Positions 2,012 to 3,131 of a DNA stretch of 41,409 nt are shown here, one piece after another (position 1 is the first letter of the stretch; the number at the start of each line of letters is the position of its first letter). The stretch comes from Escherichia coli. GTDB lineage: Bacteria > Pseudomonadota > Gammaproteobacteria > Enterobacterales > Enterobacteriaceae. Made by a program: the position numbers and the translations under genes. The notes beneath the pieces are model-generated. The model did not search any database, had not been told where the DNA came from, and was given only the letters and a program-made list of their open reading frames with translations. The stretch is taken from assembly GCF_003334765.1 (NCBI RefSeq), contig NZ_QOWT01000034.1; one strand, written 5' to 3'.

Positions 2012-2584
2012 TTACCCCTGTCGAAACAGTTCACCCGTCAGGGCATCGCGGATTTCTGAAGGATTTAAACGCCCCCCCGTTTCACCAGGCACAACCGGGA
2101 ACGCCGCGCCAAATTGTGCGCGAACTTCGTCTACTGTTCGACAAGGTGGCAATCCACTCAAGTTGGCACTGGTAGAAACCAGCGGTTTACCATAAGCCTG
2201 GCACAAAGCAACCACCAACGGATGGTCGGTGACTCGTACAGCAAGCGAATCAAAGCGGCCCGTCAACCAGCGCGGTGTTGTCGCAGGCGCGGGAAAGACA
2301 AAGGTGACAGGACCTGGCCAGCGGGAAAAAATGGTTTCACGCTGCACGTCAGTCAACATGGTGTCATCAATATAGGGTTTAAGCTGCTCGTAATTTGCTG
2401 CGATTAAAATCAGCCCCTTATCAACCGGACGCTGTTTTAACTCCAACAGTCGCATCACTGCTGTTTCGCTATCAGGATCGCACCCAACACCGAAAACGGC
2501 TTCCGTTGGATAGGCGATGACACGTTCTTCATTGAGAACATCTATCGCAGCTGCGATAGCGTCTCTTTGCAGGTTATTATTCAC
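2012..2584 (-). CDS. tsaC: tRNA threonylcarbamoyladenosine biosynthesis protein TsaC (YrdC/RimN), 190 aa, GTG start
   Basis: ORF 2012..2629 minus; YrdC-fold sequence [37 protein letters not shown]; no in-frame ATG at the expected N-terminus, GTG at 2582-2584 fits the 190-aa product. Confidence 0.8.
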
Positions 2585-2588
2585 GTTA

Positions 2589-3131
2589 TTATTCCGCCGA
2601 AACCGGCTTTCCACATTGTTTACTGGCACAAAAGTGTTTTACACCCTGCGCGGTTTTCTTTTCGATGAGTAGCGGATAATGACACTCAGGGCATTCTCCA
2701 GCTATGGGTTTGAAGTTAATGGCAAATTGACACTCCGGGTAGCGATCACAAGAGTGAAATGTTTTGCCATAACGGGAGCGGCGCTGGACCAGATGGCCCG
2801 TCCGACATTGGGGGCATGTAATTGCTGTTTCGTCCGGTTTATCGATAAGTTCGGTATGTTCGCATTCAGGGTAGTTAATGCAACCAATAAACATACCAAA
2901 GCGTCCCTGGCGTAATACCAGATTTGCGCCACATGCAGGGCAAACCTGCCCCTCCAGAACTTTGACGATATGTCCATCCGCTGAAGATTTCAGAGGACGG
3001 ACGTAGTCACACGCCGGATACTGTGAGCATCCAAGAAACGGACCGTGTTTCCCGGATCGAATAACCAGTTCAGCCCCGCACTTTGGGCAGGACTCATTAT
3101 TACGCACCGTGAACAGTGCTGATTTCGCCAT
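2589..3131 (-). CDS. yrdD: YrdD, topoisomerase-I-like zinc-ribbon DNA-binding protein (180 aa)
   Basis: ORF 2589..3131 minus; repeated CPxC zinc-ribbon motifs ([31 protein letters not shown]). Confidence 0.85.

Follow-up and report, generated by a model that had tools for sequence, protein, structure and literature searches.

Translation of tsaC (also named yrdC or rimN) begins at the GTG at 2584-2582 on the minus strand of the window, the 41,409-nt stretch of E. coli DNA analysed here, and the product of the gene is a 190-residue L-threonylcarbamoyladenylate synthase. The longer reading frame that an ORF track assigns to tsaC is one of several such over-extensions in the window, and we are highly confident that the annotated internal starts are correct for tsaC and for the other genes affected, most likely including gspD. 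The eight starts preferred in the initial annotation (tsaC GTG 2584, aroE 2007, rsmB 6376, zntR 10299, gspD 27546, gspI 33143, gspL 35091 and gspM 36251) are those found both in NC_000913.3 and in a PGAP-annotated RefSeq genome. All eight are already in curated annotation, and nothing in these positions is new.

The window is collinear over its whole length with K-12 MG1655 (NC_000913.3, 3,428,832-3,470,240), from which it differs by six substitutions and no indels, none of them close to any start codon. Every one of the 5,426 complete E. coli genomes has a match to a 3.8-kb query around the tsaC site, and in many of them the identity is 100%. The gene order is yrdA, then yrdB-aroE-tsaC-yrdD-smg-smf, def-fmt-rsmB-trkA, mscL, arfA, zntR and yhdN, followed by the alpha, spc and S10 ribosomal-protein operons, gspAB and gspC-O, and bfr, bfd, chiA and tufA. 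Orthologous DNA for the tsaC region came from six syntenic enterobacterial loci, giving seven genomes with E. coli; the genera compared were E. coli, Salmonella, Klebsiella, Kosakonia and Citrobacter, with two further enterobacterial contigs. For the gsp genes, E. coli was compared with four syntenic rpsJ-gspBA-gspC-O-bfr clusters of 45-71% GspK identity.

The tsaC start codon

The annotated tsaC CDS (2012..2584, -) has 190 codons, a placement on which annotation, protein profile, N-terminal peptide and conservation agree. The ORF-track entry (2012..2629, -) has 205 codons and opens at GTG 2629-2627; the additional 15 codons (2585..2629, -) are not tsaC coding sequence. On the coding strand the region reads GTG CCA GTA AAC AAT GTG GAA AGC CGG TTT CGG CGG AAT AAT AAC GTG AAT AAT AAC CTG CAA, with three in-frame start candidates, the GTGs at 2629, 2614 and 2584. 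The first in-frame ATG, at 2455, lies 43 codons further in. GTG 2584-2582 stands 4 nt past the yrdD stop (TAA, 2591-2589, -) and 8 nt past a weak GGA-type element, the SD-like GGCGGA at 2598-2593 (-), for which the anti-SD duplex is scored at -5.0 kcal/mol. GTG 2614 has no SD, and the SD of GTG 2629 is poorly placed. The initial annotation had argued that the tsaC N-terminus lacks an ATG and that the GTG at 2582-2584 fits the protein length, and this is borne out by the curated annotation, by an N-terminal peptide and by the presence of GTG as the tsaC start in all seven genomes.

The peptide comes from TRAINSPOTTER N-terminomics of E. coli K-12, in which tsaC (b3282) is listed in row 776 of Table S1 at its database-annotated start with the codon GTG (PMC13245402). 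Its sequence, MNNNLQR, represents residues 1-7 of 190, and its start codon, given as NC_000913:3431413-3431415 (PMC13245402, Table S1), converts to window positions 2582-2584. Because the Met that opens the peptide is decoded from GTG, where an internal GTG would give Val, GTG 2584 is the initiator. Flags for Ribo-RET, INRI and REPARATION stand in the same row, and 50 GTG database starts are reported there as confirmed by N-terminomics (PMC13245402). The tsaC GTG is one of these confirmed E. coli GTG starts and does not differ from them in kind.

The length of the protein agrees with this position. K-12 tsaC (b3282, yrdC/rimN, UniProt P45748) has the same 190-codon CDS with the same GTG start. 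PDB entries 1HRU (188 aa, MNNNLQ...) and 2MX1 (189 aa, NNNLQ...) are 100% identical to the translated ORF from residue 16/17 onwards; such constructs follow annotation and are not independent of it as to the native N-terminus, and they show that a protein of this length folds and is complete. The NCBIfam model for TsaC type 1, NF007919, matches ORF residues 29-203 with 279.9 bits (cutoff 175), wholly downstream of GTG 2584. TsaC consists of a single YrdC domain (Pfam PF01300, Sua5_yciO_yrdC) and, at about 190 aa, lacks the C-terminal domain of Sua5.

Further annotated GTG starts in the window are those of yrdB, fmt, rpsM and gspC. The rpsM GTG, in its S4-regulated pseudoknot, is the other well-known GTG start of the window. 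An Rfam Alpha_RBS match (RF00140, 102.7 bits, 13608-13719, -) covers this codon.

The yrdD end and the tsaC extension

The over-extension of tsaC runs across the 3' end of yrdD (2589-2629, -), which is read there in another frame. From the conserved yrdD motif AATGTGGAAAGC to the tsaC GTG the distance is 33 nt in five genomes, 32 nt in Citrobacter and 34 nt in Klebsiella, so that, measured against tsaC, what lies upstream falls into all three frames. In-frame stops occur upstream of the GTG, at a distance of 2 codons in Citrobacter and 14 codons in Klebsiella. The upstream sequence thus shifts frame between genera and is broken by in-frame stops, and the additional 15 codons are therefore the coding sequence of the YrdD C-terminal zinc ribbon taken out of frame.

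In all seven genomes the yrdD stop either overlaps the tsaC GTG or lies no more than 4 nt from it; in E. coli the two genes are separated by 4 nt and do not overlap. In Klebsiella (locus L004, yrdD 9453-10004, tsaC from 10001) the yrdD TGA overlaps the tsaC start as GTGA, and in one of the further loci (L007, yrdD 9484-10041, tsaC from 10031) yrdD extends 11 nt into tsaC. The C-terminus of YrdD is variable in length across genera, and the position of the tsaC GTG stays fixed.

The same over-extension recurs in protein databases. Clusters of TsaC homologues are mostly of 190 aa (Citrobacter, Salmonella, Klebsiella, Raoultella, Kosakonia, Yokenella and others), and about 23 of the 120 cluster representatives listed have 196-211 aa; another two, longer still, are chimeric. 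Among the over-extended calls are proteins P0012, P0042, P0049, P0063, P0080, P0115 and P0118 and those at loci L007 and L008. Calls of 196-211 aa are a propagating annotation artefact, in which the extra residues shadow the YrdD C-terminal zinc ribbon.

Over-extended reading frames across the window

When every one of the 60 complete annotated CDSs of the window was compared with the ORF track, the longest ORF exceeded the CDS in nine, by 72 codons in yrdA, 16 in zntR, 15 in tsaC, 13 in gspI, 9 in aroE, 8 in gspM, 7 in rsmB, 4 in gspD and 1 in gspL. The track lets each frame begin with whichever ATG, GTG or TTG comes first behind a stop, and the over-extension arises because such a codon sits in frame between the preceding stop and the true start. 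In other words, it follows from the longest-ORF rule itself and is no matter of chance. The initial annotation had called the track ORFs of aroE, rsmB, zntR, gspD, gspI, gspL and gspM too long, and each does exceed its annotated CDS; with tsaC, all eight of the ORFs it named belong on the list, but yrdA, with its 72 codons, had been left out. Orthologues, which had been proposed as the check, offer no support for the longer N-termini of aroE, rsmB, zntR, gspI, gspL, gspM or tsaC, but are ambiguous for gspD. In the extensions of aroE, rsmB, zntR, gspI, gspL and gspM, orthologous DNA has either stops or no start codon. SD-duplex scoring served as supporting evidence only: it finds nothing for rsmB or gspI and on its own would mis-call gspD.

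The largest over-extension in the window, that of yrdA (405..959, +), results from a track entry (189..959) that opens at GTG 189. The annotated ATG 405 is preceded by a GAGGT SD, upstream stops occur in four of six relatives, and the N-terminal peptides MSDVLRPYR and SDVLRPYR are listed for the protein (PMC13245402, Table S1).

For aroE (1189..2007, -), the annotated ATG 2007-2005 lies 4 nt past the tsaC stop, and the ORF-track start, GTG 2034, lies inside tsaC. Residue 1 of PDB 1NYT is ORF residue 10, where H. influenzae 1P74 and 4OMU (a third shikimate dehydrogenase entry) also begin, as do the NCBIfam profiles. The ATG is conserved in six of the seven genomes; Citrobacter instead uses an ATG one codon upstream, and both ATGs are present in Salmonella and in the ENA contig. 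Among the genomes inspected the GTG at codon -9 is specific to E. coli, being absent in Salmonella and L007, and the extension meets stops at -2 in Klebsiella and at -9 in Kosakonia.

The start of rsmB (6376..7665, +) at ATG 6376 agrees with annotation and conservation. Residue 1 of PDB 1SQF is ORF residue 8, ATG-AAA-AAA is conserved in all seven genomes, and no match exists for the E. coli TTG at codon -7. Traced upstream from the ATG, the frame in Salmonella, Klebsiella, Citrobacter and the ENA contig reaches a stop before it meets any ATG, GTG or TTG. SD-duplex scoring recognised no SD at the rsmB ATG, and the RsmB profile NF008149 starts about four positions before the E. coli Met. The ORF-track TTG 6355 belongs to a terminator-like hairpin (6347-6371, comprising 6347-6363 and a T-run), in which it lies across the loop and the 3' arm. 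This hairpin, GCCCGGT-CTT-GCCGGGC followed by GTTTTTAT, lies within the 45 nt between fmt and rsmB, its end 4 nt from the rsmB ATG; in six other genera its stem is invariant and its loop variable. It could be a def-fmt terminator or an attenuator. In Kosakonia cowanii (L005, 4914-6281) rsmB is called at 455 aa, an excess of 26 codons with which it overlaps fmt, in a frame that happens to be open upstream of the conserved ATG-AAA-AAA.

The zntR gene (9874..10299, -) starts at ATG 10299-10297, with GGAG 5 nt upstream, and its ORF-track start, ATG 10347, lies inside yhdN. Both the ATG and the GGAG are conserved in six of six genomes, and the extension contains in-frame stops in Klebsiella, Kosakonia and the ENA contig. 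In ZntR, a MerR-family Zn(II) regulator, the helix-turn-helix begins at the N-terminus. Position 1 of the ZntR profiles NF007069 and TIGR02043 (NCBIfam) falls on ORF residue 17, the annotated Met. The ZntR structure 1Q08 is a C-terminal fragment and uninformative as to the start. An in-frame internal GTG initiation signal has been reported in zntR by INRI-seq at +90 nt (NC_000913:3439039; PMC9825163), and the GTG at this site (10207-10209, -) has an SD-like match of -5.6 kcal/mol; a product initiated there would be without the N-terminal helix-turn-helix. Among the rows listed of Table S1 of PMC13245402 there is no N-terminal peptide for aroE, rsmB or zntR, and none of the genes appears in the supplements examined of a tetracycline-inhibited profiling study (PMC4909307).

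The gsp genes are annotated as cryptic in K-12; gspD, gspI, gspL and gspM lie on the plus strand. As the initial annotation had claimed, the internal starts of gspI and gspM give stop/start overlaps, and the ATGA can be read directly at the gspH/gspI junction CCCATGAAC (33143-33146) and at the gspL/gspM junction GAAATGATT (36251-36254). The gspI overlap and the short leader that follows from it are conserved in all five clusters, with the leaders MNKQSG|MTLLE (E. coli), MNRQSG|MSLLE, MNRQTG|MSLLE, MKQQG|FSLLE and MKNQSG|MLLLE. E. coli GspI thus has a 6-residue leader with Gly at -1 and Glu at +5, the canonical prepilin-peptidase site, and position 1 of TIGR01707 (132.3 bits, cutoff 44.35) falls on the cleavage-site Gly. 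In its short basic leader E. coli GspI, a minor pseudopilin of type II secretion (TIGR01707 / PF07963 N_methyl), resembles the four orthologues, whereas the ORF-track start (ATG 33104, 13 codons upstream, without counterpart in the orthologues) would give a 19-residue leader that no orthologue can encode. In gspM, the ORF-track ATG 36227 lies 8 codons upstream of the start, and all three alignable orthologues (L009, L010 and L011) have in-frame stops in this stretch. The M-I-K-x-W-W that follows the internal start is conserved, with a GTG start in L010; no NCBIfam model matches GspM at E<=1e-5. For gspL the start region (35081..35093) holds ATG 35091, the start, with AAGGA at 35081-35085, and the ORF-track GTG 35088 stands directly before it. 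The AAGGA-N5-ATG arrangement is conserved in L009-L011, and the codon at -1 is GTG, GCT, ATT or GTT, being GTG in E. coli only.

The start of gspD is less clear-cut than the initial annotation stated. Both candidates (27534..27548), ATG 27534 of the ORF track and the annotated ATG 27546, lie inside the end of gspC, and the GspD NCBIfam profile, which sets in only within the mature protein, fits both alike. MKGLNK, which opens at ATG 27546, is conserved in all three orthologues, and 27546 is most likely the start. We considered whether dual initiation, above all at gspD, might yield two N-terminal proteoforms. The AGGA of E. coli gspD is better placed for ATG 27534, 4 nt before it, than for ATG 27546; L009, the closest orthologue, has kept the ATG at -4 (MDRV-MKGLNK); and E. 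coli often has alternative starts in close spacing, with 118 alternative sites among 806 mapped (PMC13245402). However, L009 is the only orthologue to retain this ATG; L010 lacks it, and in L012 a stop stands at codon -3. The alternative-site table of the INRI-seq supplement (PMC9825163), which tabulates alternative sites only and is weak negative evidence, holds no upstream site for the genes in question: it gives no upstream extension for aroE or zntR, only downstream or out-of-frame sites, and tsaC and rsmB are absent from it. Two proteoforms of this kind are improbable, and for gspD both would share the signal peptide core and the mature secretin, so that the consequence would be small.

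A broader alternative is that the longest ORFs are themselves the real genes, with tsaC starting at GTG 2629 or 2614 and the other proteins likewise carrying longer N-termini. The 196-211-aa TsaC calls, whose extra residues are seemingly conserved between genera, and a modest SD-like match at GTG 2629 (-4.1) would favour this reading, which entails laying about 40 nt of tsaC over the end of yrdD. But the seeming conservation is that of the YrdD zinc ribbon in another frame, whose relation to tsaC varies among genera (32, 33 or 34 nt), and in Citrobacter and Klebsiella in-frame stops interrupt the extension; an internal GTG at 2584 would moreover have put Val where the peptide has Met. Together with the orthologue stops in the aroE, rsmB, zntR and gspM extensions and the lack of conservation of the gspI and gspL upstream start codons, this leaves the longer genes very improbable. 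The opposite case, a tsaC that begins at the sole in-frame ATG near its 5' end, ATG 2455 (Met44, 147 residues), has next to no probability: this codon has no SD (-0.4), and a protein starting there would be without residues 1-43, a stretch that the solved structures contain and that is conserved in every homologue. The N-terminal peptide, which maps to tsaC residue 1, rejects it.

Gene junctions and proposed translational coupling

The annotated starts place tsaC in a tightly packed run of genes, with 4-nt gaps at yrdD-tsaC and tsaC-aroE followed by a GTGA overlap at aroE-yrdB, and the stop/start junctions of gspC-O are likewise tight. The GTG start of yrdB, the second in this gene run, overlaps the aroE TGA stop as GTGA (1189-1192, -). 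Four-nucleotide ATGA or GTGA overlaps of the coupled-operon kind are thus shared by gspH/gspI, gspL/gspM and aroE/yrdB, where they are known from geometry and conservation.

Such geometry suggests translational coupling. Ribosomes form initiation complexes at the tsaC GTG within the yrdD-tsaC-aroE-yrdB run, and they may also reach this codon by termination-reinitiation from yrdD. More generally, ribosomes that finish on an upstream gene may help initiation at starts that are weak or poor in SD, and the ATGA overlaps of gspI and gspM would be the usual layout of co-translated operon neighbours. The data call for no unusual mechanism.

The results serve only as quality control: a longest-ORF track over-calls nine of 60 complete CDSs, and reasoning from sequence alone recovers the curated starts by asking which N-termini are conserved, where an SD lies and whether a stop overlaps a start. 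Many public metagenome and automatic calls still carry a TsaC of 196-211 aa with a spurious, conserved-looking N-terminus. Getting the N-terminus right is important for signal and prepilin leaders, as in GspD and GspI, for the DNA-binding N-terminal helices of ZntR and for expression constructs. It is possible, though on balance unlikely, that the strict use of GTG at tsaC reflects selection for weak, yrdD-coupled translation and a low TsaC:YrdD ratio and, separately, that gspD uses both of its ATGs. If true, yrdD-coupled translation of tsaC would hint that YrdD, an as yet uncharacterised zinc-ribbon protein, is functionally linked to t6A synthesis.
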